Assembly: GCA_964566535.1 (NCBI GenBank)
Contig: CAZMIO010000003.1
Location: forward strand, 89,153 to 153,152
DNA from: an uncultured Methanosarcinales archaeon
GTDB lineage: Archaea; Nanobdellota; Nanobdellia; Woesearchaeales; CAZOXR01
DNA: 64,000 nt
Reading direction: 5' to 3'
How positions within the stretch are numbered: the stretch's first letter is position 1; each line of letters opens with the position of its first letter. Positions 13,987 through 49,972 of the stretch are shown in pieces. The position numbers and the translations under genes were made by a program. The notes beneath the pieces were generated by a model, which saw only the letters and a program-made list of their open reading frames with translations, had not been told where the DNA came from and made no database searches.

Positions 13987-14355
13987 TTATCTTTGACTAA
14001 ATGCTTTTCTCTCTGTCCTTACATCTCCAATAATCCTCGAAACCAAATCTCCATGTTCAGATCTAATATCGCTTCTATTTACTCTTTGCTTAAAAGCAAC
14101 ACCATAAATGTCAACTAACATCTTCTCAACATCAGTTACCCTTGCATTGTATAATGTAACAAGAGTATCTTTCCTTCTTGTTAATGGATGAAGTACACCA
14201 TCCTCGCTATTCGAACTAGTCCATCTTAATCCAGGTTTTTGCTCTTGGGCATCATAAATCACATCAAAACCACGGACTTCTCGCCCACCATCAACTTCAC
14301 AACCTACGGTATACGAACCCACATCTACCCATTCTGGCATTTCGTTTTGTTCCAT
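13987..14355 (-). CDS. hypothetical protein (non-host amino-acid composition)
   Basis: This 122-aa protein is Arg/Asp/Glu/Gly-rich with few Lys. It is co-directional with and downstream of the HD-domain ORF. Confidence 0.35.
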   Translation of the reverse strand: MEQNEMPEWVDVGSYTVGCEVDGGREVRGFDVIYDAQEQKPGLRWTSSNSEDGVLHPLTRRKDTLVTLYNARVTDVEKMLVDIYGVAFKQRVNRSDIRSEHGDLVSRIIGDVRTERKAFSQR

Positions 14356-14407: not shown

Positions 14408-15685
14408 CTACCCTTTAATCATAGGAGCTTCATACCTTCCATAAGCTTCCCTAAACTTCCTTATCCCATCAAACACAACATGGCCCATAGCATAATCTTT
14501 GGCACCCCTTCTCCGATAGTGATCTTCCATCTCCTGAATCTCTCCAAAAGTTCTCACAATCAGCTCTGTTCTTAAATCAACTAATAGTTGAGGTTCATAG
14601 TGTTCTAAGAACACATCAATCCCTCTTAACACTTCAATATTCCGCTCAAACCTTTTTACTCTATCCTTAAGTTCAAGTTCATAAAGCCAATTAGTATTAT
14701 CAATAGCATCAGCAGCCTTAACAATCAATGGAGCGGCAATATACAACTCCATTTCTTCGGAATCACCCACTACATTACTAACTAATCCATAATTCTCTAC
14801 ACCTAAACACCCTTCAACCAATTCAGACATATATTCTCCATAATCTTGTCCAACTCCTTTCATATCTCTATCCTTAGTTAACAACCTTAATTGATACAAT
14901 TTTAGTTCTGCATCACTAGAATCAACAACTTCCTTTTCAAGATCATCTTCACCAACAACTACATGACTTCTTCCAAAAGTGAATATTTCTCTAACTCCTT
15001 CATATTCAGGAGGATTACGTATATCTCTAACATATTCAGCTCTCCTAACTTCATCATCAGTCCCTCCAAATAACTCTAATCTATAATCTGTTACATCTTC
15101 AATAACATCGTGCAAAAGACCCAACACTCTATGGTGTAATGGAGCACCATACGCATGAAGATTACCAGCCACCCTGGCAGGATGAACAAAACTACGTGCA
15201 TCCTTCCCAACCTCTCCACCTTTCCTTTGTTTTCCGGTCCAATTATGTCTTCTCTGCGCAAAATTAAATGTTCTAATAGTTCCCTCTCCAACCGCCCATG
15301 GAATCAATATCCTATTTGCAAAATAAAAATCATCTAATCTGCCCCTACCATACCTATCAGCAAAAACTCTCTCTACGCTAACACTATCTTCTCTCAACAA
15401 ACCTCGATCACTAACTTCAAGCCCATCAGTAGAAATTCTATTGTTCCTATAATGCCCCATATCTTCAAGTGTCCTCTGAGGTCCTCTAAGTCTATAAACC
15501 ACTTCTGTAGCAACACTTCTTCTATTAACTCTTCTTCCCGTCCTCACAATATCAAAAACTAGTCTCTGCGCATCAGATTCACTCTCCAACATCCCAGGAA
15601 GTCTACATCTCTTAATACGTTCTTCTAATTTACCGATATCATGTTCAGCCCCATTAATTGGCTCTTTGTCGTCGTCCATAGCCAT
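14408..15685 (-). CDS. HD-domain phosphohydrolase, RelA/SpoT-like (candidate (p)ppGpp hydrolase); non-host composition
   Basis: GLLHDVIEDVT matches the RelA/SpoT HD signature (LLHDVVEDT) and KAADAIDN is similar to the downstream KLADRLHN motif. It has 425 aa and very low Lys content. Confidence 0.45.
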   Translation of the reverse strand: MAMDDDKEPINGAEHDIGKLEERIKRCRLPGMLESESDAQRLVFDIVRTGRRVNRRSVATEVVYRLRGPQRTLEDMGHYRNNRISTDGLEVSDRGLLREDSVSVERVFADRYGRGRLDDFYFANRILIPWAVGEGTIRTFNFAQRRHNWTGKQRKGGEVGKDARSFVHPARVAGNLHAYGAPLHHRVLGLLHDVIEDVTDYRLELFGGTDDEVRRAEYVRDIRNPPEYEGVREIFTFGRSHVVVGEDDLEKEVVDSSDAELKLYQLRLLTKDRDMKGVGQDYGEYMSELVEGCLGVENYGLVSNVVGDSEEMELYIAAPLIVKAADAIDNTNWLYELELKDRVKRFERNIEVLRGIDVFLEHYEPQLLVDLRTELIVRTFGEIQEMEDHYRRRGAKDYAMGHVVFDGIRKFREAYGRYEAPMIKG

Positions 15686-16408: not shown

Positions 16409-16909
16409 TTAAGAAGACTTATGCCCCTGTTCCATATACCCTAAATGTTTAGGTGGCCTTAATTGTTCTTCTGTAGGTTCAATACCAATCATCTTACAAA
16501 CGTCAATAAATACTTCCCGTTGTTGAACATACCCCGTTAACATACTCAAAGCCTCATCGTAAGAAACCCATTGATAGTCACTATGCTCACCTTCAGCTGT
16601 TGCTATATCTACTTGAGAACCAACAGGCGCACGTACTGCATAAGTTACTAAGTCAATATGTATCGGATTACCACTTTTTTCAGTATCAAATCCAATGTAG
16701 TGTCTCGTATCTTCAATAATCTCTAGATGCCTCAATCCTTGAGCTTCTTCTCTAGTCTCTCTTATCGCTGCCTCAATATCACTCTCCCCTTCTTCTATAC
16801 CTCCACCAGGACTCTCCCAAAATCCTTTCCTAGCTCTAAGTAATAAGAATCTATAATCTCCATTATTTTCATCGTATACTATTGCCCTTACATTATTTCT
16901 TGTTTTCAT
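16409..16909 (-). CDS. Nudix hydrolase
   Basis: The Nudix box GGGIEEGESDIEAAIRETREEAQG matches GX5EX7REUXEEXGU. Confidence 0.75.
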   Translation of the reverse strand: MKTRNNVRAIVYDENNGDYRFLLLRARKGFWESPGGGIEEGESDIEAAIRETREEAQGLRHLEIIEDTRHYIGFDTEKSGNPIHIDLVTYAVRAPVGSQVDIATAEGEHSDYQWVSYDEALSMLTGYVQQREVFIDVCKMIGIEPTEEQLRPPKHLGYMEQGHKSS

Positions 16910-17018
16910 ACGCTAAAGGACCCATAGGCATTATATAAATCTTATGGTAGTAACAACACCAAAAACTCATTCAACAATCTTTATAAATCAAACTACAACC
17001 CATTTCATAAGGGGTAGT

Positions 17019-18896
17019 ATGGATAAAACAAATTTCCTTGATATTATAAACGAGCCAAAAGACTTAAGGCTATTAAACAAAGTACAATTAAAGTACTTAG
17101 CAAACGAACTAAGGCAATACATAATTAACACAGTTTCTAAAACAGGCGGACATCTAGCACCATCTTTAGGAGTAGTAGAGCTAACAATAGCGCTACATTA
17201 CGTTTTCAACTCTCCAACTGACAGAATTGTATGGGACGTAGGTCACCAGTCTTATCCTCACAAACTTCTAACAGGCAGAAAAGACATTTTTAGCACATTA
17301 AGACAATATAAGGGAATGTCAGGCTTCCCAAAAACAGAAGAATCTGATCATGACGCATTCAATACTGGACATTCCTCAACTTCAATCTCAGCAGCGCTAG
17401 GGATAGCCAAAGCAAGAGACCTAAAAGAGGAAGATCATAAAGTCATAGCTGTAATAGGGGACGGAGCAATGACTGGCGGATTAGCCTTTGAAGGACTTAA
17501 TCATGCAGGATCTTCAAAAACAAATCTTATAGTTATCCTAAATGACAACAAGATGTCCATCTCCCCAAATGTTGGAGCTCTCTCATCATACCTAGGTAAA
17601 ATGGTTACTAATCCTAAGTACCATGAAATAAGAAAAAAACTAGAACATTCACTAAGAAGAGTTCCAAGAATTGGTTCAAAGGCAGCTGAAAAAGCAATGA
17701 ATTTAGAAGATACCTTACGAGCATTATCAAATCCAGGAATGTTGTTCAAAGAACTCGGTTTTAGCTACTTCGGCCCAATTGATGGACATAACCTTGATGA
17801 CCTAATCAAAGCACTTCACAACATAAAGCTAATAGAAGGCCCAATCCTTCTACATATACACACAAAAAAAGGAAAAGGCTACTCTCATGCAGAAAACAAT
17901 AAAACAAAGTTCCATGGAATAAGTCCTTTCAATATAGACGATGGAGAAAAGGTAAAATGCGCAAATGCTCCAACTTACACCGAAATATTCTCAAAAACAA
18001 TCGTAAAGTTAGCCCAAGAAAACGAAAAAATAACTGCAATAACAGCAGCAATGGCACCAGGAACTGGACTCGATGATTTCTCAAAACAATTCCCAGAAAG
18101 ATTCTTCGATGTAGGCATAGCAGAACAGCATGCAGTTACTTTTGCAGCAGGATTAGCAATAAACGGATTCAAACCAATCTGCGCAATCTACTCAACTTTC
18201 CTACAAAGAGCATTCGATCAAATCATACATGATGTTTGCCTACAAAAACTTCCAGTCATCTTCGCAATTGACCGTGCAGGCTTAGTTGGAGAAGACGGAC
18301 CAACACATCACGGACCATTTGACATCTCATTCCTAAGACACATTCCTAACCTAGTAATTATGGCACCAAAAGACGAAAACGAATTCCAACACATGTTAAA
18401 AACAGCAGAGCAACATAACGGCCCAGTTGCAATAAGATACCCAAGAGCTTGTGGGTTAGGAATAGAATTAGATGAAAAACTAACCTCATTACCAATGGGA
18501 AAAGCAGAGATAATTGAGGAAGGAAAAGATGTTTTAATCCTAGCAATCGGAACGTGCGTTCAAAAATCAATAGAAGCAGCAGAAGAACTAGAAAAAAACA
18601 ATATCAAACCAACAATAGTAAACGCAAGATTCGCAAAACCTCTAGACGAACAATTAATAATTAAATTAGCAAACAAAATCCCAAATATCCTAACAGTAGA
18701 AGAAAACACCCTAGAAGGCGGCTTCGGCTCATCAATATTAGAAATTCTAGAGAAGAACAACATCAAAGCAAACGTCGAAAGAATAGGGGTCCCAGATAAG
18801 TTCGTCGAAGCAGGACCAATCGACGTTTTAAAGAAAAGTATAGGCCTAACAAAAGAGAATATTGCAAAAGTTGCAACTAAATTAGTAAAAAAATGA
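17019..18896 (+). CDS. dxs: 1-deoxy-D-xylulose-5-phosphate synthase
   Basis: GGHLAPSLGVVELTIALHYVFNSPTDRIVWDVGHQSYPHKLLTGR, the TPP motif GDGAMTGGLAFEGLNHAG and ILNDN match Dxs. The start was chosen at MDKTNFLD. Confidence 0.9.
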   Translation: MDKTNFLDIINEPKDLRLLNKVQLKYLANELRQYIINTVSKTGGHLAPSLGVVELTIALHYVFNSPTDRIVWDVGHQSYPHKLLTGRKDIFSTLRQYKGMSGFPKTEESDHDAFNTGHSSTSISAALGIAKARDLKEEDHKVIAVIGDGAMTGGLAFEGLNHAGSSKTNLIVILNDNKMSISPNVGALSSYLGKMVTNPKYHEIRKKLEHSLRRVPRIGSKAAEKAMNLEDTLRALSNPGMLFKELGFSYFGPIDGHNLDDLIKALHNIKLIEGPILLHIHTKKGKGYSHAENNKTKFHGISPFNIDDGEKVKCANAPTYTEIFSKTIVKLAQENEKITAITAAMAPGTGLDDFSKQFPERFFDVGIAEQHAVTFAAGLAINGFKPICAIYSTFLQRAFDQIIHDVCLQKLPVIFAIDRAGLVGEDGPTHHGPFDISFLRHIPNLVIMAPKDENEFQHMLKTAEQHNGPVAIRYPRACGLGIELDEKLTSLPMGKAEIIEEGKDVLILAIGTCVQKSIEAAEELEKNNIKPTIVNARFAKPLDEQLIIKLANKIPNILTVEENTLEGGFGSSILEILEKNNIKANVERIGVPDKFVEAGPIDVLKKSIGLTKENIAKVATKLVKK

Positions 18897-19936
18897 TAAG
18901 AAAGCCAACCAAAGAGATTAAAATCGGTAACGTAACCATCGGCAACAATAATCCTATCGCCATCCAATCGATGACAAACACATTAACTAAGGATGTAACT
19001 GCCACAATTAACCAAATCAAAGAACTCCAAGAATTAGGCTGCGAAATAGTAAGAGTTTCTGTACCAGACCAAGAATCAGTCAACGCCTTAAAAGAAATAA
19101 AACAAAACATAAACATACCGTTAGTAGCAGATATTCATTTCGACGCAAAACTAGCAATTGAAGCAGCAAAATACGCAGACAAACTAAGAATCAATCCAGG
19201 AAACATCGGTAATGAAGAAAAAATTAAGCAAGTTATCAACGCAGCAAAAGAAAACAACATCCCAATCAGAATTGGAGTTAACCTAGGCTCATTAGAAAAA
19301 GACCTAGAAAAAGAATACGGCTTAACACCAAAAGCAATGCTAGAATCAGTTAAAAGACAAATAGCAATCTTCGAAAAAAACGATTTCCATAACATCGTAG
19401 TAGCACTAAAAACGTCAGACATCAAAAAAACAATTGAAGTCAACAGAATGTTCGCAAAAGAATACGACTACCCTATACATCTAGGAATAACAGAAGCAGG
19501 CTCTGGGTTCTCAGGCACAATAAAATCATCAATTGGAATTGGAACATTACTACAAGATGGAATCGGAGACACAATCAGAGTTTCACTATCAGCCCAACCA
19601 AACGAAGAAGTAAAAGTAGCAAAACAAATATTATCTTCATTAAAGATAAGAAAGTTCGGTGTAGAAATAACCTCTTGCCCAACCTGCGCAAGAGCAAACC
19701 TTGACGTAATCCAAACAACAAAAGAATTAGAAAAACTAACCGAAAAAAGTAAAACTCCAATCAGCATAGCAGTAATGGGCTGCGCAGTAAACGGACCAGG
19801 CGAAGCAAAAGAAGCCGATATTGGCGTAGTCGGGGGAATTGACGAATGCCTACTCTACAAAAAAGGAGAGATAATAAGAAAAATAAAAAAAGAAGATATT
19901 TCTAAAGTTTTATTGGATGAGATTGAAGGAAGATGA
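18893..19936 (+). CDS. ispG: 4-hydroxy-3-methylbut-2-enyl diphosphate synthase
   Basis: PIAIQSMTNT, VRVSVPD, LVADIHFD, LRINPGNIG, HLGITEAG and CPTC...GCAVNGPGE are collinear with bacterial GcpE. It overlaps the dxs stop. Confidence 0.9.
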   Translation: MIRKPTKEIKIGNVTIGNNNPIAIQSMTNTLTKDVTATINQIKELQELGCEIVRVSVPDQESVNALKEIKQNINIPLVADIHFDAKLAIEAAKYADKLRINPGNIGNEEKIKQVINAAKENNIPIRIGVNLGSLEKDLEKEYGLTPKAMLESVKRQIAIFEKNDFHNIVVALKTSDIKKTIEVNRMFAKEYDYPIHLGITEAGSGFSGTIKSSIGIGTLLQDGIGDTIRVSLSAQPNEEVKVAKQILSSLKIRKFGVEITSCPTCARANLDVIQTTKELEKLTEKSKTPISIAVMGCAVNGPGEAKEADIGVVGGIDECLLYKKGEIIRKIKKEDISKVLLDEIEGR

Positions 19937-20361
19937 AGGCAAGAATAATCCCAATGCCGCCGAGGGGGAGCGTAGGTGAAGATTACACTCAAGTTGGTGG
20001 TCCACCTTATTTATTATTTGAAGGCGAAGCTGAAGGATATGATATAGTTCTTGGTTATAGGATCATTCCCGGAGACTCACAGCAGGTTGCACACAGAGTC
20101 CAATCTGCAGATCTTAGATTAGAGACCGATATCAGAGCAATACCTACAGGAGACATTTCAATCGCAGCAGAATATGAAAGCGAGAGTACTGGTGATTTAG
20201 TAGAAGCAGTAATTAGGGAGTCTAGAAACTTTGCTAAATTAGGAAATGCTGACTACTATTTTGTTGATTTGACTAGTCCAGGAATTATAACTTCACCCGT
20301 GCCACCATTCCGAGGGAGACCATATGTTGTTGTTAGACCTTTATTATTTAGAGGGATATAA
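19933..20361 (+). CDS. hypothetical protein (non-host composition), translationally coupled to ispG
   Basis: An ATGA overlap joins it to the ispG stop. It is 142 aa, Gly/Pro/Arg/Asp/Glu-rich, with 2 Lys. Confidence 0.35.
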   Translation: MKARIIPMPPRGSVGEDYTQVGGPPYLLFEGEAEGYDIVLGYRIIPGDSQQVAHRVQSADLRLETDIRAIPTGDISIAAEYESESTGDLVEAVIRESRNFAKLGNADYYFVDLTSPGIITSPVPPFRGRPYVVVRPLLFRGI

Positions 20362-20424
20362 TAACTATTCCTTGTTCTTATCCTAACAACACATTTATAA
20401 ACAAATTCTTTAGATTAATTACCT

Positions 20425-21642
20425 ATGTACGAAATACTAAAACTATCATTAATCTTAATAGTAATGATAATTATTATAGCTAGAAAGCTAGACCTAATCT
20501 ACGCCATCTTATCAGGAATCATACTAACAGGATTCTTATTCAACCACTCGAGAGGATTCATACCTGACTTCACAGAAACAATAACTGACTTCAAAGTAAT
20601 CAATATCCTAATTGTCTTCTACTTCGTATTCTACCTAAGTAACCTACTCACAGACGCAGGAATCTTAAAAAAAATGCTAGCATCATTAGAAAAGTTCATC
20701 AAAGACATACGTTTCGTAATAATCTCATTACCTTTGATGATAGGTATTGTTCCAGCACCATCCGGAGCAATGCTCTCAGCACCCTTTGTCAACGAATTAG
20801 GGGACAGAGTAAAATTATCACCAACTAGAAAATTAATAATCAACTATTGGTATAGGCATGTAACAGAATACCTAAATCCAATCTATCCAGGACCAATTAT
20901 CTTAACTGCCCTATTAGGAATTACCTTCACCCAATTATTCACATTAAACATACCTATAATGTTGTTCGTAATAATCCTAGGATTCTTCATGTTTGTCATA
21001 AACATAAAATCAACCGAAAAAAACGATGAAAAACCAACAAAGAATGACCTTAAAAACATACTAAATGGAATACTTCCGATCTTCATAGCAATCCTACTAC
21101 CAATAATCTTCAAGATAAATATTTCAATATCATTAATAGTTGCAATCCTCCTAATAATTGTAGTAAACAAATTAAACATCCAAACGCTAAAGCCAGTCTT
21201 CAAAAAAGCATTCAAACCAAATATTTTAGTCTTAATATTCCTGATAATGTACTTCAAAGTTATCTTAGAAAACTCAAAAGCAGTTGAATTAGTCTCAAAT
21301 CAATTCATAACATTAGGATTCCCACCAATCTTCTTAATAATCTTACTACCTTTGGTTGTAGGTTTCATGACTGGAATGACAATAGCTTATGTTGGACTAG
21401 CCTTCCCCTTACTAATACCACTTATGCAAACTCCAACAGGACTAAATATGTCATTTGTCATGCTCGCCTATGTAGCAGGATTCGTAGGCGTATTAGCAAC
21501 ACCAACTCACTTATGTTTCTCAGTAACGAAAGAATACTTCAAGGCCCCATACACAAAACTCTACAAAAAACTATTACCTGCATTAACACTTCTACTAACA
21601 TTCGCAATAATTCTAGCTCTATTCGGTTGGAGCGGGTTCTAG
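20425..21642 (+). CDS. polytopic membrane protein / putative permease
   Basis: It is 405 aa with about 10-12 hydrophobic segments. Confidence 0.5.
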   Translation: MYEILKLSLILIVMIIIIARKLDLIYAILSGIILTGFLFNHSRGFIPDFTETITDFKVINILIVFYFVFYLSNLLTDAGILKKMLASLEKFIKDIRFVIISLPLMIGIVPAPSGAMLSAPFVNELGDRVKLSPTRKLIINYWYRHVTEYLNPIYPGPIILTALLGITFTQLFTLNIPIMLFVIILGFFMFVINIKSTEKNDEKPTKNDLKNILNGILPIFIAILLPIIFKINISISLIVAILLIIVVNKLNIQTLKPVFKKAFKPNILVLIFLIMYFKVILENSKAVELVSNQFITLGFPPIFLIILLPLVVGFMTGMTIAYVGLAFPLLIPLMQTPTGLNMSFVMLAYVAGFVGVLATPTHLCFSVTKEYFKAPYTKLYKKLLPALTLLLTFAIILALFGWSGF

Positions 21643-21709
21643 AACACCACTATAAAGTGATAACAAACCAAAAGCTTTATATACTAGTAATTGAGTCTTA
21701 CTTACTGAT

Positions 21710-22705
21710 ATGTTACAAAATCAATTTGCAGATCCAAGATATACAGGTTTAGATACTTTTCTAGCTGGCGATACATTTGCAGGCATAGAAAGCGCTTATT
21801 CTCCAGACACTGCACATCATGTTCAAAGAATGACTGCACAGTTTTACAAAGTACTGGGTCGAAATCCCGCTAAAGAAGCTGAAATTCCATCAAGAGTAGC
21901 AGCAGCTGAAGCAATTGTAGAACAATTAACAACAGATGAAGTAGTAAATTCAATTGATAAGTGGAGACAACTAATCTATAGCTGTACTGATGCACCAGAT
22001 TTTATGCCAGATGATCTTCCTTCATGGGTAACCCCTGACGAATATCCAGGAGACCTCACTTCAGGTATACTAGCTTATTTTATAAGACCTAGTGAAGCTT
22101 TAGCCGAATCTGCTCATTTAGATGAGGCATACGATATTGTTGATAAGTTACCTGACTTCATGAAACCTAGGACAGTTAGAGCAATTACAAGAGCAGGACA
22201 ATCGCCATCTACTCATCTAGTAGGAAGAAATACTTTTGGATTACCCTCAGCAAAATATGCTCATGACATTGCAGAAAATGTTTACGCAACAGAAGAGCTA
22301 GCTGAACTTACCGAAGTTTATACTCGTTTCCTTAGAAATCCAGATAATACGCAAGTTGAGAATCTAGCAAGAATAGTATTAAACCCACTCCACGCAAAAG
22401 TAGAGGCAGATTATAGGAAAACACCTTACCATTCACCAGAACATTGGCAGGGATTAAGAAATTATGCATCTGCTATGGCACAACCCGAGGGAAGAACAAA
22501 TGTTGGTTTAAATATTGCTAATAAACTTGCAAGAACTGGTTTAAAAGAATCTGGAATGCAAAGTATCATGGATTATGCCCAACAAAAACAAGTTGGTAGA
22601 GATCAACTAAGAGGGCAAGTTGCAAAGCTCTCAAGAAAATTACGTGACGGTACTACGCCACAACCACAAACCTTAGGTGATTTTAATCAATTACTAATGT
22701 CTTAA
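21710..22705 (+). CDS. hypothetical protein (non-host composition)
   Basis: It is 331 aa with about 4 percent Lys against a host-typical content well above 10 percent. No motif was recognised. Confidence 0.35.
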   Translation: MLQNQFADPRYTGLDTFLAGDTFAGIESAYSPDTAHHVQRMTAQFYKVLGRNPAKEAEIPSRVAAAEAIVEQLTTDEVVNSIDKWRQLIYSCTDAPDFMPDDLPSWVTPDEYPGDLTSGILAYFIRPSEALAESAHLDEAYDIVDKLPDFMKPRTVRAITRAGQSPSTHLVGRNTFGLPSAKYAHDIAENVYATEELAELTEVYTRFLRNPDNTQVENLARIVLNPLHAKVEADYRKTPYHSPEHWQGLRNYASAMAQPEGRTNVGLNIANKLARTGLKESGMQSIMDYAQQKQVGRDQLRGQVAKLSRKLRDGTTPQPQTLGDFNQLLMS

Positions 22706-22817
22706 ATTTCTAACATCGTGGATACCTTAAAATCTTTGAAAACTAATTCTAGCTATATTCGGTTGGAGTGGATTTTAACAACAAAATATTTATATCATCT
22801 AATCACAAAAGAAAGGT

Positions 22818-23360
22818 ATGGTACTACTAAAATCTATAACTAAACTGAATAAAGGAGAATCCGCGCCAGACTTCTCATTAGAGAACATTGATGATACAGT
22901 TACAAACCTATCTGACTTCAAAGGAAAAGCAGTTGTAATCATATTCATGTGCAATCACTGCCCCTATGTCAAACCAAAACTGCAGGAGATAGCTGATATT
23001 GATAATGACTATGAAGATGTCGTAGTCATTGGCATAAACTCAAATGACCCAACTAACTATGAAGAAGACAATTTCGAAAACATGAAAATTATAGCTAAAC
23101 AATTTGGTTATAAACATTATCTAGTTGACGAAACTCAAGAAGTAGCAAAAAGCTATGGTGCAACTTGTACTCCAGACCCTTTCATTTTTGATAAAGATCA
23201 TAAATTAGTATTTCACGGAAGAATAAATGATTCTATGGAACCAACTGACCCAATAACTGAAAAAACAATGAGAAATGTCTTAGATAAACTGTTAGCTGGA
23301 GAAGAAATCACTGAATGGTTCTTACCTAGTCTTGGTTGCAGTATTAAGTGGAAGAATTAA
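22818..23360 (+). CDS. thioredoxin-fold redoxin (AhpC/TSA or PRX-like family)
   Basis: The FMCNHCPYV CxxC-type motif follows a beta-strand (KAVVIIF), which is a Trx-fold arrangement. Confidence 0.6.
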   Translation: MVLLKSITKLNKGESAPDFSLENIDDTVTNLSDFKGKAVVIIFMCNHCPYVKPKLQEIADIDNDYEDVVVIGINSNDPTNYEEDNFENMKIIAKQFGYKHYLVDETQEVAKSYGATCTPDPFIFDKDHKLVFHGRINDSMEPTDPITEKTMRNVLDKLLAGEEITEWFLPSLGCSIKWKN

Positions 23361-23673
23361 AGTCCAACTGATCATCCTGGACATAATTAAGATTCTGTTT
23401 CAACGATATTTCCGCTTTCGTTAATTCTTTTGCAAGATATGCTAAATGTTGATTTTTCAATTTTATATGTTTAATAACAGTATTATACACAGAAGGCACA
23501 TCATGACCTTTAAACAAATATTCAATCACATTATCCTTCTTACAAAATCCTGCTTCTATCTGATTCTCATTAATTCTAATCAGAAAATATCCATGGTCCA
23601 TGTCAAATTCTTTATCAGAGTCAAACGTACATTCAATTATCTTACAATCCTCACTTAAAGTCGGTTTTGTCAT
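23344..23673 (-). CDS. hypothetical protein
   Basis: This 109-aa protein overlaps the redoxin 3' end convergently. Confidence 0.3.
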   Translation of the reverse strand: MTKPTLSEDCKIIECTFDSDKEFDMDHGYFLIRINENQIEAGFCKKDNVIEYLFKGHDVPSVYNTVIKHIKLKNQHLAYLAKELTKAEISLKQNLNYVQDDQLDFNSST

Positions 23674-23749
23674 TATATTGGTTATCTATTATCACTATAT
23701 AAATTTTAGGGTTACCTTTAAAAACTAATTCTTACTCCCTATCTACAGC

Positions 23750-24880
23750 ATGAAAACACTATCAATATTAGGCTCAACAGGATCAATAGGAACACAAACA
23801 CTAGAGTTAGTTAGAAACAATCCTAATGAATTCAAAGTCCTAGGCTTAACTGTAAACAAAAACATCGAACTTCTAAAACAACAAATAGACGAATTCAATC
23901 CAGTTTCAGTTGCAGTAATGGACGAACAAAAAGCAGACGAACTAAAAGTTGACATCCCAGTCTACAAAGGATTAGAAGGAATAAACAAAATTGCAACATT
24001 ACAAGAATCAAACACAATCATAAACTCCCTTGTAGGATCAATAGGAGTAATTCCAACAATAAAAGCAATTAAAGAAAAAAAGAACATTGCTTTAGCAAAC
24101 AAAGAAACATTAGTAACAGCAGGAGACATAGTAATGGAAGAAGTAAGAAAACATCAAGTAAACTTAATGCCAATTGATTCTGAACATTCTGCAATATTTC
24201 AATGCCTAAACGGAGAAAAAATAAACGAACTAAAAAAAATAATCATAACTTGCTCAGGCGGAGCATTCAAAAACAAAACAGAAGAAGAACTAAAAACAGT
24301 AACAGCAAAAGACGCTTTAAAACACCCTACCTGGAACATGGGTGCAAAGATAACGATTGACTCAGCAACTCTAATGAACAAAGGCTTTGAAGTTATTGAA
24401 GCACATCACTTATACAACATTCCTTACGAACAAATTGAAGTTATCATACATCCAGAGTCAATCATCCATTCATTAGTTGAATTCCAAGACACCTCAATCA
24501 TAGCACAATTAGGATACCCAGATATGAAAATACCTATCCAATACGCATTAACATATCCAAAGAGAATAAAGAACAACTTAAAATCCCTAAACCTCAACGA
24601 ATTAAAGCAATTAAACTTCAAAACCCCTAACCATCAATTATTCCCATGCCTAAATTACGCTTACGAAGCAGGAAAAACAAAAGGAACCTTACCAGCAGTA
24701 CTAAACGCAGCAAACGAAGTTGCAGTACAACAATTCTTAGAAAATAAAATATCTTTCCTAGACATCGCAAAAACAATAAAACAAGCCCTAGACTCACATA
24801 ATATAATCAAAAACCCAGACTTAGCTGAAATCTTAGAAGTTGATAAGCAAACAAGAGAAAACGCTTCACTCAAAAGCTAA
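23750..24880 (+). CDS. dxr: 1-deoxy-D-xylulose-5-phosphate reductoisomerase
   Basis: LSILGSTGSIGTQTL, LANKE(T/S)LV, DSEHSAIFQ, GSGGAF and HP.W.MG are Dxr signatures. It is about 376 aa. Confidence 0.9.
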   Translation: MKTLSILGSTGSIGTQTLELVRNNPNEFKVLGLTVNKNIELLKQQIDEFNPVSVAVMDEQKADELKVDIPVYKGLEGINKIATLQESNTIINSLVGSIGVIPTIKAIKEKKNIALANKETLVTAGDIVMEEVRKHQVNLMPIDSEHSAIFQCLNGEKINELKKIIITCSGGAFKNKTEEELKTVTAKDALKHPTWNMGAKITIDSATLMNKGFEVIEAHHLYNIPYEQIEVIIHPESIIHSLVEFQDTSIIAQLGYPDMKIPIQYALTYPKRIKNNLKSLNLNELKQLNFKTPNHQLFPCLNYAYEAGKTKGTLPAVLNAANEVAVQQFLENKISFLDIAKTIKQALDSHNIIKNPDLAEILEVDKQTRENASLKS

Positions 24881-25634: not shown

Positions 25635-26258
25635 ATGGCAGTCATATCTTCAGAACAATATCAAGCAAGACTTCTAGCTACCTTGGCACATTTACAAGAT
25701 TCGGATATAAAAGATCAAATAGGCCCTAAATTAGGAGGGCGGGGAGGTACAGCTTTTTATCCTATGGGTGATGTACAATTGCCTGGAGAGGATCCATTAT
25801 ACTTAGGTCTTAAATTAAGAAGTAATTCTGAAGAAGAAATCGCAAAAGAATTACAACTCTTTGAATTCTTGTACACCTTAGGCTGCCCAGTACCTTATTT
25901 AAGTGTTGTTGTAACCAATGGGGAAGATGTAGGAATATTAACAGAAGACCTTACACGTAATGGGGAACTAGACTTAACAGAGATTATCCTACCTCACTTT
26001 ATCCCTGACTCATTGGACAACTGTGCAGAACTAAGGGAACAATACGGAGGTTCTTGTATGGATATAAACCAAACAGGCATTACAGCTTATGGAAAATCTT
26101 ACTTCGTTGCTCATGAACCATACACAACAGGGATAGGAAGAGGCTGTTTTCTTGATATAGAACATTTTGAATTCCCACCAGACATAAAAGAACTAGAACA
26201 ACAAGTAAAACAAGAAGCACCAAAGTATCTCAGAGAACCATTATTATTAAGGGTATAA
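25635..26258 (+). CDS. hypothetical protein (non-host composition)
   Basis: It is 207 aa, Gly/Leu/Glu/Pro-rich with few Lys. Confidence 0.35.
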   Translation: MAVISSEQYQARLLATLAHLQDSDIKDQIGPKLGGRGGTAFYPMGDVQLPGEDPLYLGLKLRSNSEEEIAKELQLFEFLYTLGCPVPYLSVVVTNGEDVGILTEDLTRNGELDLTEIILPHFIPDSLDNCAELREQYGGSCMDINQTGITAYGKSYFVAHEPYTTGIGRGCFLDIEHFEFPPDIKELEQQVKQEAPKYLREPLLLRV

Positions 26259-27122: not shown

Positions 27123-28223
27123 TTATTTCACCAACGAAACTATCTTCTCTGCACATTCTCCCATCGTAGCTAATGTATCTATCTTATTCTCAGTAAGTAT
27201 CTTCTGACCTTCAGCCTCATTAGTACCAATTAACCTTACAACCATAGGAATCTTAATCTCATTCTTAGATATATAATCAACTAAACCTTGAGCAATATTA
27301 TCACACCTTGTAATCCCGCCAAAAATATTAATAAATATCCCTTTTGGATCCTTCTTCATACAAATTTCCAAACTCTTCTCCATCTTCTCTACAGATGCTC
27401 CACCACCAACATCTAAAAAGTTAGCAGGCTTTCCACCATAATGACCGATTGCATCAAGTGTTGCCATAACCAACCCAGCGCCATTCCCAATTATCGCAAT
27501 ATTTCCATCAAGCTCAACATATGCAACTCCAGCTTTATTAGCTTCCTTCTCTATAGGGGTCAATTCACTCTCTTTCTGAGAAGTAAACTCAGGGTGCCTA
27601 AATAAAGCATTATCATCAATTATAACTTTAGAATCTGCAGCAACTAAACCTTTAGGAGTTATCGCAAGAGGATTAATCTCAACTAGTTCAGCATCACTCT
27701 CAACCATACTCTTAGCTAATTTCTCAACAATCTCAACCAATTCAGTAGCATGTTCAAAACCTTTCAACTTCTCCATCAAACTTCCAGGAGAAAACTCACT
27801 CATTGGCATCTTAATTACTTTGGAAGGAGAGGTCTTTGCAAGCTCCTCAATATCAACTCCTCCTTCAAGAGATACTATCAGTGTCAAGCCCTTCTCAACT
27901 CTGTTAACCACAATAGAAACATAAAGCTCTCCAAGAAAATCTAACTTTTCACATACTAAAATCTGATCAACCTTTTCTCCTTTCAGATCCATACCAAGAA
28001 TTGACTTAGCAACATCCTCAATATCCTCTTTAGTTGCAAACTTAACCCCGCCAGATTTACCTCTACCACCGACCAAAACCTGAGCCTTAATCACATACTC
28101 AGAACTATCTAACTCACTCAACTTACCTTGGATCTCATCAACAGAATTAACTGGAAAACCTTCCTGGATCCTAATTCCGTTCTTCTTGAAAATCGCCTTA
28201 CCTTGATATTCTTTCAGTTTCAT
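27123..28223 (-). CDS. sucC: succinyl-CoA synthetase beta subunit (ATP-grasp)
   Basis: MKLKEYQGKAIFKKNGI is the ATP-grasp N-terminus typical of SucC. It lies immediately upstream of sucD. Confidence 0.85.
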   Translation of the reverse strand: MKLKEYQGKAIFKKNGIRIQEGFPVNSVDEIQGKLSELDSSEYVIKAQVLVGGRGKSGGVKFATKEDIEDVAKSILGMDLKGEKVDQILVCEKLDFLGELYVSIVVNRVEKGLTLIVSLEGGVDIEELAKTSPSKVIKMPMSEFSPGSLMEKLKGFEHATELVEIVEKLAKSMVESDAELVEINPLAITPKGLVAADSKVIIDDNALFRHPEFTSQKESELTPIEKEANKAGVAYVELDGNIAIIGNGAGLVMATLDAIGHYGGKPANFLDVGGGASVEKMEKSLEICMKKDPKGIFINIFGGITRCDNIAQGLVDYISKNEIKIPMVVRLIGTNEAEGQKILTENKIDTLATMGECAEKIVSLVK

Positions 28224-29227
28224 AAAGCATCCCTAAAACTAAACCCATATTTTATTGCCTGTACATTCTTATCCACAAACTTAGGCGGAAGAACATCTTC
28301 AATATTTATAAGCATTATGTTTATCCCCAAATACTTCAGTATTTTCCCCAAAGCAATCATATTAACAAAAACCTTATTCCCGAACTTAGAAACCGCATCT
28401 TCCTTAAATCCAAACTGATCCCTATTTTTACATTGAACAGCACAATCAATACATTTTTTACCACAGATTGTATCGTCAATTATCAATTCCTTAGCTGGAA
28501 ACCACTGTCTTGTCCTTGCAAACTTCAACAACAAATCAGCTTCATCAATTATCGGATTCTCAATCTTATTCTCAGAAAATATCAAATCAGCAGAAATATT
28601 ACCGCTCCTAACTGCAGAGTCATACTCCATATTCAAAGAAACCTCATTACCAAGCTGAGATAATATATGTGCAAGCGAAAATGACAACAGCTTTATCCCC
28701 TGACCAGCTTCTCCAACAATCTTAATCCTCCTTTCTTTCTCCGCATTCTCATAATCTCCAATGTGTTTGATCAGCTTCTGTATCTCTATTCCAAACATAC
28801 TCTTCTTTAGTAAAACACCTTTCTCAAAACCAAACTTAGATATATTCTCAATAAACTTATTCTTTGAGTAAGCATACATTACAATCTTATAACAACCAGT
28901 CTCAATCAACTTCTTCTCCAAATGCTCCATAAGCTTCCTAATGTAACCTTTACCTCTATGTTCCTTACTATTATATACCCAGTAAATTGTAAAAACATTA
29001 AACAGCAACCATCCAAATAAGAACGCAACGACTTCCCCATTCTCTTCAACAACATAAAATGCCGCCTGTTTATCCTTCATTAACTCAGCAAGACCATCAC
29101 CAGTAAAATTAGCTTTCAAAGCCTTACGAATCTTATCAGGCTCTTTATCGTAAGTCTCATCAATAACATTCTCCATCAGCTTACCGACAGCTTCAGCATC
29201 CTTCTTCTCAATCTTCCTAATTTCCAT
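28220..29227 (-). CDS. GNAT acetyltransferase fused to a 2-oxoacid:ferredoxin oxidoreductase gamma subunit
   Basis: The N-terminal about 150 aa have a GNAT fold (FLFGW...HRGKGYIRKLMEH). The C-terminal about 180 aa (KIVGEAGQGIKLLSFSLAHILSQLG...) match the Por/Kor gamma subunit. Confidence 0.6.
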   Translation of the reverse strand: MEIRKIEKKDAEAVGKLMENVIDETYDKEPDKIRKALKANFTGDGLAELMKDKQAAFYVVEENGEVVAFLFGWLLFNVFTIYWVYNSKEHRGKGYIRKLMEHLEKKLIETGCYKIVMYAYSKNKFIENISKFGFEKGVLLKKSMFGIEIQKLIKHIGDYENAEKERRIKIVGEAGQGIKLLSFSLAHILSQLGNEVSLNMEYDSAVRSGNISADLIFSENKIENPIIDEADLLLKFARTRQWFPAKELIIDDTICGKKCIDCAVQCKNRDQFGFKEDAVSKFGNKVFVNMIALGKILKYLGINIMLINIEDVLPPKFVDKNVQAIKYGFSFRDAL

Positions 29228-32578: not shown

Positions 32579-34555
32579 ATGTTCAGATCGCACGATATGA
32601 AGAAGGTAGTGATTTTTGCTCTTAATAATCACAGAGACACTATCCTTTCAAAGATACAAAAACTAGGTTTAATGCAGCCTGTTGACCTCAAAAAAAGCGA
32701 AGTCAAAGAGCTAAACAAACCATTAGATAATTCTAACTTAAGGAAAATATCAGATTCCCTCCTAAGAATCTCAAGGTTAGTTAACATATTAAAAATTCCC
32801 CCTAAGAAACCCTCATTTGTCCAATCAATTCTTGGACTAGACTTATTAGATAAAAAACCAGTCCAGCATCAAAATTACACTAAAGTACTACAAGAATCGG
32901 AATCATTTCTAAATAAACACGAAAAAGAATTAATCAATCTAGAAGACGACCACTCAAAACTCCTGGAAAGAGAAGAAGAACTTGGTGGGTTTCATGTAAT
33001 TGTAGAACTATTTGGTCAGCACAACATCCCCTTAGAACTCCTAGCATCAACTGAAAAGATCTCAATCGTAACTGGACGTGTCTCAAATGAACACAAGCAA
33101 AAACTAGAGCAGGAATTAAACGAAAAATTAAACTCAGAAGTCCATATCATCACAAAAGAACAAGATAAGAAAGAATCAATCATAACTGTAGTCTCATTAA
33201 AAGAAAAACTTCCAGACTTAAACTTCTTAATGAAGAAATATAACGTTTCACAATTCACGATTCCAGAATGGGGAATAAAAAAGGACCCTAAGAACTATGT
33301 TGAAACAGAACTCAAGAGTGTTGAGCTAAAAAAGGAAGAGATTATGGGCAAAATAAGCAAATATGCCTCTAACACATTTGAAGGAGCAGTAATCCTAAGA
33401 GAAGAACTAGAAATTCTAAAACACCGTTACGAGACAATACATTCTATGCTCGACTCAGAAAAATTCTTCGTACTTCAAGGATGGATTCTAGCAAACAAAC
33501 TAAAACATTTCGAAACTGAACTAAAGACATCAGTAAACGAAAGTATAATAATCAAAGTAGAAGACCCCAAGAAAGATGACAATCCACCAGTAGAATTATC
33601 AAATAAAAAACACTTCAAGCCATTTGAGATGCTAACTGAACTTTATGCACTACCTAAATATAAAGACCTAGACCCCACTTTCATCGTAGGTCCATTATTC
33701 CTTATTTTCGCAGCATTCATGTTAACAGATGCAGTTTACGGATTTTTCTTAGTTATACTAGGGATATTAATCTTAAAGAAATTCGCAAAATACTCAGAAA
33801 GTATGAAACAAATTGCAGTTATCATCTTAGGCATGGGGCTACTCACTGTAATGTTTGGTATTTTAACGGGTTCCTATTTTGGTGACTTCCCAAAGTACAT
33901 CTGGGGAATGGAACCTAAAGATTTAGCAATATGGAAAGACCCGCTAGAAGATCCATTATATTTCCTAATCATCGCAATTGGAACAGCAGTCATTTACTTA
34001 AACATCGGATTCATCCTAGGAGTTATTGAAGACTTCAGGAAACGAGACTTCAAAACAATGTTTAAGGAAAGATTAGTCTGGTTTATGCTCCAGGCAGGGA
34101 TAGCATTACTAATATTGAAGGCAAATCCAATTTTATTCTCACTCCTTGGCAAAGATATTGGTTTAGCAACATTAATCATCACAATTTCAGTACTATCTAT
34201 AGTGATAACATCAGGACCATTAGGTTTACTATCTATAACAGGACTCATGGGGGACATGATTTCATTTTCACGTCTTTTCGCACTATCATTATCTACAGCA
34301 GGAATTGCCCTAGCAGTCAACTTGCTGGCAAATCTTGTTAAAGACACACCATTTGTGGGAATAATCTTGGCAGCAATCATATTCTTAATTGGACATGCAT
34401 TTGGGTTTGTAATGAATTCAATAGGTAGTTTTGTACATTCACTAAGGTTACAATTCGTAGAATTCTTCGGAAGATTCTATGAAGGTGGTGGAGATAAATT
34501 CACCCCACTAAAGGAAGACCGTTATTATACAGAGGTTAAAGAAGATGACAATTGA
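32579..34555 (+). CDS. atpI: A-type ATP synthase subunit I (stator a-subunit)
   Basis: It is 658 aa, with a soluble N-terminal half and a C-terminal polytopic membrane domain containing the conserved Arg-bearing helix (..SFSRLFALSLS..). Confidence 0.85.
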   Translation: MFRSHDMKKVVIFALNNHRDTILSKIQKLGLMQPVDLKKSEVKELNKPLDNSNLRKISDSLLRISRLVNILKIPPKKPSFVQSILGLDLLDKKPVQHQNYTKVLQESESFLNKHEKELINLEDDHSKLLEREEELGGFHVIVELFGQHNIPLELLASTEKISIVTGRVSNEHKQKLEQELNEKLNSEVHIITKEQDKKESIITVVSLKEKLPDLNFLMKKYNVSQFTIPEWGIKKDPKNYVETELKSVELKKEEIMGKISKYASNTFEGAVILREELEILKHRYETIHSMLDSEKFFVLQGWILANKLKHFETELKTSVNESIIIKVEDPKKDDNPPVELSNKKHFKPFEMLTELYALPKYKDLDPTFIVGPLFLIFAAFMLTDAVYGFFLVILGILILKKFAKYSESMKQIAVIILGMGLLTVMFGILTGSYFGDFPKYIWGMEPKDLAIWKDPLEDPLYFLIIAIGTAVIYLNIGFILGVIEDFRKRDFKTMFKERLVWFMLQAGIALLILKANPILFSLLGKDIGLATLIITISVLSIVITSGPLGLLSITGLMGDMISFSRLFALSLSTAGIALAVNLLANLVKDTPFVGIILAAIIFLIGHAFGFVMNSIGSFVHSLRLQFVEFFGRFYEGGGDKFTPLKEDRYYTEVKEDDN

Positions 34556-37500
34556 GGATGTAGCTAACATCATCACAATTCCAATACAAAAGAATGGAGT
34601 TCCAGCTACTATCCAGGTTATTAACCAAACAGTAGCAGATACAGCATCTACTGCAATAACCAACATCTCAAACACAGCAGCAGATGCAGTAATCACCGTT
34701 TCAAACACAGCAGCAGATGTAGCAGTTAATACAACTAAAGCAGCAACAGTTCTATTAGGAATGGATTTCGGGAACCTAGATGGAAAAGCAGTAGCAATCA
34801 TTGGAGCAGGAATAGCAGTTGCAGCAGCAGGAATTGCATCAGCAATCGGAGCAGGAATTGTTGGTTCTACTGGAGCAAGAGAATCTGCAGAGGATCCAAA
34901 AAGATTTTCACAATCATTACTATTCCAAGCCCTACCTCAAACTCAGGGAATTTATGGTTTTTTAATAGCAATCCTAATCATGTTAGGCGCAGGAGTAATA
35001 GGCCCTGCAAAAGAAATAACTTTATCTCAAGGACTTGGCGCCCTAGGAGCTGGGTTAGCAGTTGGACTTGCAGCAGTATCAGCAATCGGTCAAGGGTTAG
35101 CCGCATCTGCTGGATTAGGAGCAACAGCAAGAGACAAAAAGATGTTCGGAAAATCAATCCTATTCTCAGTACTTCCAGAAACACAAGCACTATACGGATT
35201 CCTTGTAGCTATCCTTATATTAGTAGGATTCGGACTTTTCGGAACTGCACCAGTAGACATACCAATCGCAGCTGGTTGGGCAGCAGTTGGAGCAGGTCTT
35301 GCAATAGGTCTTGCAGGTATCAGTGCAATCGGTCAGGGAATCGCTGCAGCAGGAAGCATTGGGGCAGTCTTAGAAAAAAGCAAGGCATTTGGTAAATCAG
35401 TTATATTCGCAGTACTCCCAGAAACACAAGCCCTATACGGATTCATAATCGCAATCTTAATCCTCATTGGATTCGGAATCCTAGGAACAGCAACTACAGC
35501 ACTTTCATTTGGAGCAGCACTATTCACAATTGCAGCAGGATTAAGTGTTGGTCTTGCAGCAGTATCGGCAATCGGTCAGGGAATCGCAGCATCTTCAGGG
35601 GTAAATGCAGTAGCCTCAAATGACAAATCATTCGGAAAATCAATCCTATTCTCAGTACTCCCAGAAACACAAGCACTATACGGCTTTTTAATTGCCATCC
35701 TTCTTCTAGTTGGAGCAGGAATAATTGGAGCTGCAAAAGCAGGCATAACTACCCCAATAGGAGTCATTGCAATCGGTGCAGGACTTGCAGCAGGTATTGC
35801 AGGTATCAGTGCAATCGGTCAGGGAATCGCAGCCAGCGCAGGAATTAATGCAGTAAGTCAAAAACCAAAATCATTCGGAAAAGCTATTCTTTTCAGTGTC
35901 CTCCCAGAAACACAAGCACTATACGGCTTCCTAATAGCTATCCTCTTATTAGTTGGAGGGGGAATATTAGGAACAGCAAAGCTTGGAATTGAAATTCACG
36001 TTGGATTAATAGCAATCGGAGCAGGCCTTGCAACAGGTCTTGCAGCAATCTCAGCAGTAGGTCAGGGAATCGCAGCCTCATCAGGAATAGCAACAGTAGC
36101 TAAAGACGAAAAATCATTCGGAAAATCAATCCTATTCAGCGTCTTACCAGAAACACAAGCACTATACGGCTTCCTAATAGCAATCTTATTAATGGTAGGC
36201 GGAGGATTACTAGGTGCAATCAAATCAGGATTAAATATATCAACAGGACTTATTGCAATCGGTGCAGGCTTAGCAACTGGTCTTGCAGCAGTATCAGCAA
36301 TCGGTCAGGGAATCGCAGCCTCATCAGGCATTAACACAGTTTCAAAAAATCCAAAATCATTCGGAAAATCAATCCTATTCTCAGTACTTCCAGAAACACA
36401 AGCCCTATACGGCTTCCTAATAGCAATCCTACTAATGGTAGGCGGAGGAATAGTTGGAGCAACAACAACTGGATTATCATCCGGAATTGGATTAATCGCA
36501 GTTGGATGTGGTATAGCAGTTGGATTTGCAGCAGTCTCAGCAGTAGGTCAGGGAATCGCAGCCAGCGCAGGAATCAATGCAGTAAACGAAAACCCAAAAT
36601 CATTCGGAAAATCAATCCTATTCTCAGTCTTACCAGAAACACAAGCACTATACGGCTTCCTAATAGCAATCCTACTAATGGTAGGCGGAGGATTAGTTGG
36701 AATAGTCAAACAAGGAATAGACCTCCCTATAGGATTAGTGGCAATCGGAGCTGCCATTGCAACAGGAATTGCAGGTATCAGCGCAGTAGGTCAGGGAATG
36801 GCAGCATCATCTGGAATAGCAACAGTAGCTAAAGACGAAAAATCATTCGGAAAATCAATCCTATTCTCAGTCTTACCAGAAACACAAGCACTATACGGCT
36901 TCCTAATAGCAATCCTACTAATGGTAGGGGGAGGATTATTGGGTGTAATCAAAGAAGGCATAAGCATAGCTATTGGTTTTGTGGCAATCGGTGCAGGACT
37001 TGCAGCAGGTTTAGCAGCAGTCTCAGCAGTTGGTCAAGGAATCGCGGCCTCATCCGGTATTAATACAGTTTCAAGAAATCCAAAATCATTCGGAAAATCA
37101 ATCCTATTCAGCGTCTTACCAGAAACACAAGCACTATACGGCTTCCTAATCGCTGTACTTCTACTTGTAGGCGGAGGAATAATCGGAGTAATAAATCCTA
37201 ATATCAACTTACCAGTTGGATTAATAGCAATCGGTGCAGGACTTGCAACAGGTTTAGCAGCAGTCTCAGCAGTAGGTCAGGGAATGGCAGCAGCTGCAGG
37301 AGCAGAAGCAGCATCTGAAGATCCAAAATCATTCGGAAAATCAATCCTATTCAGCGTCTTACCAGAAACACAAGCACTATACGGCTTCCTAATAGCAATC
37401 CTACTAGTAGCTTCAGGAGGAATACTGGGAGCAGCAAAACCAGGCCTTACAGTACCGATTGGACTTGTAGCAGTTGGTGCAGGAGTATCTATCGGAGTTG

Positions 37501-43850: not shown

Positions 43851-44171
43851 ATGAATGAGGCAAAAAAATACTCAGTAATCGGAGGTTTAGCCGGAGTAGT
43901 AACTTTGGCCATACTAGATTTTACAATAGTTGGGAACGGATTAGATATGGATACAATCAGAACATTTGGTGCTAGTAGCATACTTGCAGCTTATACACTT
44001 GGCTCGGCGGTTGGAGGAGCAGCTTCAACCTACAGAGAACAAGCAAGAATTAGAGAATCAGGGCAAGGTATAGGCACATATTCACGATCAGATGTTCCTT
44101 TTATACTTGGAAATTCAACTCTATCGCTGCTTGGAAGTTATGCTACATATGCTAATAAATTTGGATTATAA
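43851..44171 (+). CDS. small Gly/Ala/Ser-rich membrane protein (non-host composition)
   Basis: It is 106 aa with 3 Lys and two hydrophobic segments. Confidence 0.3.
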   Translation: MNEAKKYSVIGGLAGVVTLAILDFTIVGNGLDMDTIRTFGASSILAAYTLGSAVGGAASTYREQARIRESGQGIGTYSRSDVPFILGNSTLSLLGSYATYANKFGL

Positions 44172-49892: not shown

Positions 49893-49972
49893 ACATGCCT
49901 CTTTTTTAAAGTTTGTCTAAAAATAGGTTAATTCAAAATATTTTTATACAAACTACCATTCCTCAACATAAA

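Follow-up and report, generated by a model that had tools for sequence, protein, structure and literature searches.

Bacterial-type MEP pathway genes integrated in the chromosome of a marine Woesearchaeota archaeon

The 64-kb stretch of metagenomic DNA analysed here (from contig CAZMIO010000003.1; "the window" below means this whole stretch) carries dxs, ispG (gcpE) and dxr, three genes of the 2-C-methyl-D-erythritol 4-phosphate (MEP) pathway for isoprenoid precursors. Its source is an uncultured marine Candidatus Woesearchaeota (DPANN) archaeon, of whose chromosome the window is a segment. We hold it very probable that these are Woesearchaeota MEP genes of bacterial origin, integrated in the archaeal genome, and that their products, together with IspDF, IspE and IspH encoded elsewhere, replace the mevalonate route.

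In the textbook lipid divide, archaea use mevalonate and bacteria use the MEP pathway. Dxs converts pyruvate and glyceraldehyde-3-phosphate to 1-deoxy-D-xylulose 5-phosphate (DXP), Dxr converts DXP to MEP using NADPH, and IspG, a [4Fe-4S] enzyme, converts methylerythritol cyclodiphosphate (MEcPP) to hydroxymethylbutenyl diphosphate (HMBPP) with electrons from ferredoxin or flavodoxin. To our knowledge, neither Dxr nor IspG has a role outside this pathway.

The initial annotation had interpreted the three genes as bacterial-type MEP genes embedded in an archaeal genome. That interpretation is supported, and the MEP pathway in Woesearchaeota has been known since 2018 (Castelle & Banfield 2018, cited by both PMC8204110 and PMC8421398). 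The MEP enzymes of a few DPANN archaea were ascribed to horizontal gene transfer in the same year (PMC6107057), and Castelle et al. 2021 (PMC8204110) described a monophyletic Woesearchaeota clade of 52 genomes with a contiguous MEP gene cluster. Huang et al. 2021 (PMC8421398) report the MEP route as the sole one in Woesearchaeota; their subgroup J has a fused ispDF gene, and its dxr and ispG are nearest to those of Firmicutes. Marine Woesearchaeota and Nanoarchaeota metagenome-assembled genomes (MAGs) with the pathway have since been reported (PMC10936187, 2024).

Identity of the three MEP genes

The open reading frames (ORFs) at 17019-18896, 18893-19936 and 23750-24880 had been called Dxs, IspG/GcpE and Dxr, and both the coordinates, which are exact, and the assignments stood up to profile and structure comparisons. 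In Pfam, Dxs matched DXP_synthase_N (E = 3e-124) together with Transket_pyr and Transketolase_C, IspG matched GcpE (E = 8e-147), and Dxr matched DXP_reductoisom, DXP_redisom_C and DXPR_C (each about 1e-41). NCBIfam equivalog models gave Dxs 889 bits with TIGR00204 (cut-off 466), IspG 480 bits with NF001540 (cut-off 345) and 421 bits with TIGR00612 (cut-off 280), and Dxr 552 bits with NF009114 (cut-off 461).

Each protein also aligned over its full length to a solved bacterial structure: Dxs to Escherichia coli Dxs (2o1s; E = 2e-185, residues 7-613), IspG to 3noy (E = 1e-99) and Dxr to 6mh4 (E = 8.5e-120). For Dxs we compared the thiamine diphosphate motif, GDG-X(25-30)-N(D)N, and the conserved active-site stretches with those of the E. 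coli enzyme. The motif (GDGAMTGG...ILNDN) and the stretches IAEQHAVTFAAGLA and DRAGLVGEDGPTHHG aligned to 2o1s, and AEQHAV and DRAG.VG.DG.TH.G were kept. For IspG we looked for the three Cys and one Glu that ligate the [4Fe-4S] cluster, and found CPTC...GC.VN..GE preserved, with SCPTCAR/GCAVNGPGEA aligned to ACPTCGR/GCVVNAIGEA of 3noy. For Dxr, where an N-terminal GSTGSIG and the metal-binding D-x-E and E of the catalytic domain were sought, the NADPH motif GSTGSIG occupies residues 8-14, and PIDSEHSAIFQ and NKGFEVIEA are retained relative to 6mh4.

That the ORFs might be divergent paralogues, such as transketolase-like proteins, had been named as a way in which the assignment could fail; we also considered another reductoisomerase or TIM-barrel protein in place of working MEP enzymes. 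Dxs does share domains with transketolase and the pyruvate dehydrogenase E1 component. However, the equivalog scores of the three proteins lie far above the dxs, ispG and dxr cut-offs, whereas transketolase and E1 models on Dxs fell far below theirs (the top transketolase model reached 232 bits against a cut-off of 488), and the full-length alignments keep the cofactor and metal ligands. We give paralogy a minimal probability. The three ORFs are thus predicted to be true, full-length Dxs, IspG and Dxr with intact cofactor and catalytic motifs. They resemble the bacterial enzymes along their whole length, in domain order and in cofactor and metal motifs, and their chemistry is presumably the same; unlike those enzymes of solved structure, they have an archaeal host.

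Integration into an archaeal chromosome

The genes around dxs, ispG and dxr had been described as archaeal, and this was borne out. The window encodes L44e, aIF2alpha, PAC2, enolase and aIF5B, as well as pyruvate:ferredoxin oxidoreductase, succinyl-CoA synthetase, a complete A-type ATPase operon, citrate synthase, isocitrate dehydrogenase, aconitase, Thi4, HydF and HydE. S27e, Nop10 and L7Ae, with an operon for RpoH, split RpoB and split RpoA, lie directly upstream, as seen in copies from other assemblies that are at least 99.7% identical. Given these ribosomal, translation, RNA polymerase and A-type ATPase genes on the contigs, the backbone of the locus is archaeal.

The exact Dxr protein occurs on 17 contigs. 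It is present in NCBI, where it is named Dxr of Candidatus Woesearchaeota archaeon, and in JGI, ENA and Tara. Loci 99.7-100% identical to the window came from NCBI (two MAGs and a metagenome assembly), JGI (two metagenomes) and ENA (two assemblies), at least six of them independent. Four of these loci (L001-L004), spanning 13750/15547 to 28398/34880, were colinear with the window through both junctions of the MEP region, at 16.9 kb and 24.9 kb. A tetranucleotide check at these junctions, proposed with the first reading of the sequence, revealed no break: the correlation of 4-kb windows with the whole window was 0.93-0.96 in the MEP region and no different outside it, and the sole outlier was the repetitive ATPase c-subunit gene. 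GC content was flat at 0.33-0.38 over the window.

Codon usage in this genome has to be read by strand. Third codon positions in the window show a strong skew, with A3+C3 of 0.52-0.81 in plus-strand genes and 0.17-0.43 in minus-strand genes; the plus strand is A+C-rich at these positions regardless of gene orientation, without a switch in 64 kb. A comparison pooled over strands had made the MEP genes look like codon outliers (r = 0.80 against a 'core' set), which we rejected as an artefact of mixing strands: because the genome has a strong absolute strand skew, a pooled comparison misleads. Strand-matched, per-gene analyses reversed the impression. The third-position composition of dxs, ispG and dxr matches that of native plus-strand genes such as aIF5B, and under a codon model of native plus-strand genes their synonymous-codon likelihoods were -0.76 to -0.86, where native genes range from -0.80 to -1.04. 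All three lie at the well-fitting end, and dxr fits better than any native gene. The proportion of lysine among basic residues, K/(K+R), is 0.75-0.90 in Dxs, IspG and Dxr, which is native-like, so that the host-like codon usage and lysine-richness noted at the outset are confirmed. The MEP genes are now compositionally indistinguishable from native genes, as expected of ameliorated, long-integrated genes.

That assembly or binning had fused bacterial MEP genes with archaeal DNA into a chimera would be a reasonable suspicion a priori, since the genes are bacterial and DPANN MAGs are often contaminated; no result here favours it. Gene order and junctions are reproduced at 99.7-100% identity in different samples and pipelines, there is no k-mer break, and codon usage is native down to the replication-strand skew. 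A sister species with proteins 75-80% identical keeps the aIF5B-PUA-...-dxs-ispG-...-dxr synteny, and distant Woesearchaeota carry the cluster between archaeal ribosomal protein genes. With colinear independent assemblies, no tetranucleotide break, flat GC content and native strand-matched codon usage, chimerism is excluded, with next to no probability left to it, and the genes are integrated, as had been argued, and are not contamination.

Origin, gene order and the predicted pathway

We searched Dxr against GTDB with one genome per species. Among 185,579 species genomes, the nearest sequences were those of 11 Woesearchaeota/Nanoarchaeota MAGs (63-72% identity), with bacterial sequences coming next at no more than 60%. 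In a neighbour-joining tree of 46 sequences (Kimura distances, 100 bootstraps), all 14 Woesearchaeota/Nanoarchaeota Dxr sequences, including that of the window, formed one clade with 97% bootstrap support, nested among bacterial sequences. The window Dxr is sister to that of MAG Yap2000.bin4.8 (70% identity), and the clade is a large one, to judge from over 120 protein clusters at 67-75% identity.

A recent, strain-specific horizontal acquisition was weighed against an ancient, clade-wide one. Several neighbours of the MEP genes (the NUDIX, 142-aa, 331-aa and 207-aa ORFs) do have the look of newcomers. The MEP genes themselves, in contrast, carry native codon usage and strand skew, belong to this monophyletic and widespread clade, and are syntenic in the sister species, so that recent acquisition has a probability close to nil.

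Two observations concern other archaeal Dxr sequences. Four of the 11 nearest MAGs are third-party annotation (TPA) entries labelled 'uncultured Methanosarcinales archaeon' (L007, L010, L011, L016; 33-37% GC); they have a Woesearchaeota-type Dxr inside the clade, and L010 and L011 also have the full Woesearchaeota-type MEP cluster; the 'Methanosarcinales' labels of these four are probably wrong. A Micrarchaeia MAG (JAVZCX010000003.1; L027, 6123-11164) encodes, about 2 kb downstream of homologues of aIF2alpha and PAC2, a Dxr 52% identical to that of the window. This Dxr falls outside the Woesearchaeota clade in the tree, so that DPANN may contain a second lineage with dxr, possibly an independent one.

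In relatives, the complete pathway stands as a single block, dxs-ispG-dxr-ispDF-ispE-ispH, in some cases with a polyprenyl synthase gene after it, and is flanked by archaeal genes for ribosomal proteins and RNA polymerase (L093, L094, L096, L009-L017). In the window, only dxs and ispG are adjacent; dxr lies 3.8 kb downstream, a difference in arrangement and not in pathway identity. Five ORFs intervene (a 142-aa ORFan, a DUF401 protein, a 331-aa ORFan, AhpC and a DUF4346 protein), and the MEP genes of the window lineage adjoin aIF5B, PUA and DUF371 genes. The sister-species locus (L095, from the same ENA sample) has the order aIF5B-PUA-[ORF]-DUF371-dxs-ispG-[ORF]-DUF401-dxr, directly followed by the citrate synthase-isocitrate dehydrogenase-aconitase block. 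Its Dxs, IspG and Dxr are 80%, 77% and 75% identical to those of the window, and its aIF5B 77%. Because dxs, ispG and dxr are conserved between the sister species as much as a housekeeping gene, this comparison argues for purifying selection on the MEP genes. The ancestral contiguous cluster has been broken in the marine subclade of the window.

The closest named MAG, Yap2000.bin4.8 of subgroup J, likewise has dispersed MEP genes and a marine origin and belongs to the same phylum. There, dxr is not near dxs-ispG and is preceded by bcd-etfBA-plsC-plsC-gpsA, whereas here dxs-ispG lies upstream of dxr. We read these neighbours (L008, 4508-11128) from the ORF translations as an acyl-CoA dehydrogenase, EtfB/A, two PlsC-type acyltransferases and a bacterial-type GpsA directly 5' of dxr, a neighbourhood that echoes the published link of MEP genes with bacterial lipid genes. 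In the supplement of PMC8421398, ispE and ispH of Yap2000.bin4.8 adjoin each other at a separate locus; ispDF, ispE and ispH are documented for that MAG, but were not found for the window genome. In comparison with the 52-genome clade (PMC8204110), the enzymes are homologous (Dxr 63-70% identical), the context is archaeal and chromosomal in both, and the explanation, ancient bacterial transfer then vertical descent, is the same. The MEP genes form one block by ribosomal protein genes there, but are broken up and lie by aIF5B, PUA and DUF371 genes here.

We propose that an ancestor of a large Woesearchaeota clade acquired the MEP genes from bacteria, with vertical inheritance thereafter. In the window genome, Dxs, Dxr and IspG would work with the products of ispDF, ispE and ispH encoded elsewhere to make isopentenyl diphosphate (IPP) as well as dimethylallyl diphosphate (DMAPP), replacing the archaeal mevalonate route. 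IspG and IspH may plausibly draw their electrons from reduced ferredoxin, one supplier of which could be the nearby pyruvate:ferredoxin oxidoreductase with its ferredoxin subunit. No mevalonate genes (HMG-CoA synthase or reductase, mevalonate kinase, isopentenyl phosphate kinase and others) were found in the 64-kb window or its flanks.

That Dxs does not merely serve thiamine or pyridoxal phosphate (PLP) synthesis, as had been argued from the presence of Dxr and IspG, gained further support. The window encodes a Thi4-type thiazole synthase, which is DXP-independent, so thiamine thiazole is not a reason to keep Dxs. The supplement of PMC8421398 lists pdxT among the genes gained by subgroup J, which implies a DXP-independent route to PLP as well. 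This leaves the making of isoprenoid precursors as the one role evident for dxs, ispG and dxr. The thi4 gene adjoins the [FeFe]-hydrogenase maturase genes hydF and hydE, and hydG lies just past the end of the window.

Several points weigh against the proposal. First, ispDF, ispE and ispH were not found in the window plus 8-10 kb on either flank (about 80 kb), and tblastn searches of the window and all fetched flanks with the IspDF, IspE, IspH and polyprenyl synthase of relatives gave no match for this genome. Second, a profile built from nine Woesearchaeota IspH sequences and run against 5.8 billion proteins returned other Woesearchaeota as all of its best 120 hits, none of which could be tied to the contigs of this genome. 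Third, subgroup J is without geranylgeranylglyceryl phosphate (GGGP) and digeranylgeranylglyceryl phosphate (DGGGP) synthases (PMC8421398), which leaves the use of its isoprenoids uncertain. Fourth, the bacterial sister of the Dxr clade was weakly supported (an unclassified 'bacterium' MAG at 55% bootstrap, Firestonebacteria at 39%). The genes next to dxr in the former (L018) were uninformative on whether it is truly bacterial; the latter (L019) is clearly bacterial, with a penicillin-binding protein gene and the usual bacterial order dxr-rseP-ispG, which differs from that of the window. Published trees differ on the donor, Firmicutes (PMC8421398) or the Fibrobacteres-Chlorobi-Bacteroidetes (FCB) group (PMC6107057).

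The first two of these points would also fit a relic pathway, in which the cluster broke up, ispDF, ispE and ispH were lost, and the remaining genes are decaying or otherwise used, for example to supply DXP. Fragmentation of the cluster in both the window and L095 is in line with this. Against it, the three genes are intact with their catalytic motifs kept; they are as similar to those of the sister species (75-80%) as aIF5B is (77%), and a remnant Dxr and IspG would have no known use. In Yap2000.bin4.8, too, the genes are scattered, and ispE and ispH are nonetheless encoded at another site. A relic is accordingly unlikely, and a working pathway completed by genes at other loci is the reading that we prefer.

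Other features of the window and wider meaning

The coordinates of the features are collected in Table 1. The longest ORF for dxs begins at 16944, but 17019 is the better start, because the Pfam match starts seven residues after it, NCBI calls a protein of 625 aa, and a TATA-like element and GGGGT precede it. These two elements form a putative archaeal promoter and ribosome-binding site of a dxs-ispG unit, within which the start of ispG overlaps the stop of dxs by four bases. The TATA-like element ahead of dxr suggests that this gene may be a separate transcription unit. The DUF401 protein between ispG and dxr has a counterpart of 63% identity at the same position in L095. A divergently transcribed NUDIX gene just upstream of dxs was considered as a type 1 isopentenyl diphosphate isomerase (IDI) and rejected: it has a canonical Nudix box, gave only sub-threshold NCBIfam matches to RNA/NTP pyrophosphohydrolases, and is absent from L095. 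Scans of the window for tRNA genes and Rfam families found nothing.

Table 1. Positions of the genes and signals discussed, in window coordinates
Feature	Position	Strand	Basis or remark
dxs, Dxs (625 aa per NCBI)	17019..18896	+	Pfam, NCBIfam equivalog, structure alignment
ispG (gcpE), HMBPP synthase, two-domain bacterial type, 347 aa	18893..19936	+	Pfam, NCBIfam, 3noy alignment
dxr (ispC), DXP reductoisomerase, 376 aa	23750..24880	+	Three Pfam Dxr domains, NCBIfam, 6mh4 alignment
Putative promoter and ribosome-binding site of dxs-ispG unit	16980..17015	+	Read from sequence; TATA-like TTTATAAA at 16980-16987, GGGGT at 17011-17015, just 5' of dxs ATG
TATA-like TATATAAA	23696..23703	+	Read from sequence; 46 nt upstream of dxr ATG
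142-aa ORFan, K-poor, R-rich	19933..20361	+	Called in four independent assemblies
DUF401 / TIGR00529-family membrane protein	20425..21642	+	Pfam DUF401 E=1e-53; between ispG and dxr
331-aa ORFan	21710-22705		Second class
Divergently transcribed NUDIX gene	16409-16909		Second class
425-aa ORF, second class	14408-15685	-	HD-like 'LLHDVIEDV'
Other second-class ORFs	13987-14355, 25635-26258, 43851-44171, 49913-50296, 50360-50707, 52804-53673, 53777-54187, 54259-55464, 55589-56986, 59694-60875		
Pyruvate:ferredoxin oxidoreductase gamma subunit	28220-29227	-	N-terminal GNAT acetyltransferase domain
A-type ATPase K (c) subunit	34545-37916	+	1123 aa, 13 tandem ATP-synt_C hairpins
Thi4-type thiazole synthase (DXP-independent)	61241-62020	+	Window ORF
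hydF, hydE	62044-63973 and beyond	-	[FeFe]-hydrogenase maturases

A second class of ORFs, about 16 out of 64, stands apart. Its members are K-poor and R-rich (K/(K+R) of 0.1-0.5, against mostly 0.6-0.9 for the other ORFs), have lower GC at third codon positions and a less pronounced strand skew, and for the most part have no family assignment. Three lie interspersed among the MEP genes. The 142-aa ORFan begins with an ATG that shares bases with the stop codon of ispG (ATGA, 19933-19936), an overlap that would couple translation of a species-specific ORF to conserved ispG. This ORFan had no Pfam or NCBIfam match and no similarity to the 121-aa ORF in the same slot of L095, and its AlphaFold single-sequence model was uninformative (pLDDT 35). 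The 331-aa ORF had no homologues among 1.84 billion representatives. Equivalent slots in the sister species hold unrelated ORFs, and the second class looks like a set of species-specific, replaceable ORFans. That these are functional, fast-turnover accessory or host-interaction genes riding on a conserved operon is an unlikely reading, and the most novel one that we considered; if true, the ORFans would be a systematic gene-turnover feature of Woesearchaeota genomes and not annotation noise. The 425-aa member matched the RelA/SpoT N-terminal model TIGR00691 at E = 6e-4, far under its cut-off, and may be a divergent HD-domain hydrolase.

The gene for the K (c) subunit of the A-type ATPase encodes a single polypeptide in which each of the 13 hairpins keeps the (L/I)PET(Q/Y)A carboxylate motif. 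At the DNA level the repeats are no more than 76% alike, and the product is the same in a JGI assembly. A single protein would make up the entire c ring, as in Methanopyrus kandleri, whose 13-hairpin rotor has been described (PMC2359735). That rotor is not unique, since about 40 relatives of similar length (965-1186 aa), most of them annotated as hypothetical, occur in Nanoarchaeota/Woesearchaeota, Methanopyrus, Euryarchaeota MAGs, Promethearchaeota (Asgard) and Gracilibacteria of the candidate phyla radiation (CPR).

For the MEP pathway, the window is a further example and not a discovery, the point having been made repeatedly for the same phylum since 2018. What departs from published accounts is only the gene order, which is fragmented in a marine subclade. 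The additions are modest: full amelioration of the genes, their synteny between sister species, and the fragmentation of the cluster in one marine subclade. A MEP pathway in archaea crosses the lipid divide and shows DPANN archaea to have rebuilt core lipid-precursor metabolism with bacterial genes.

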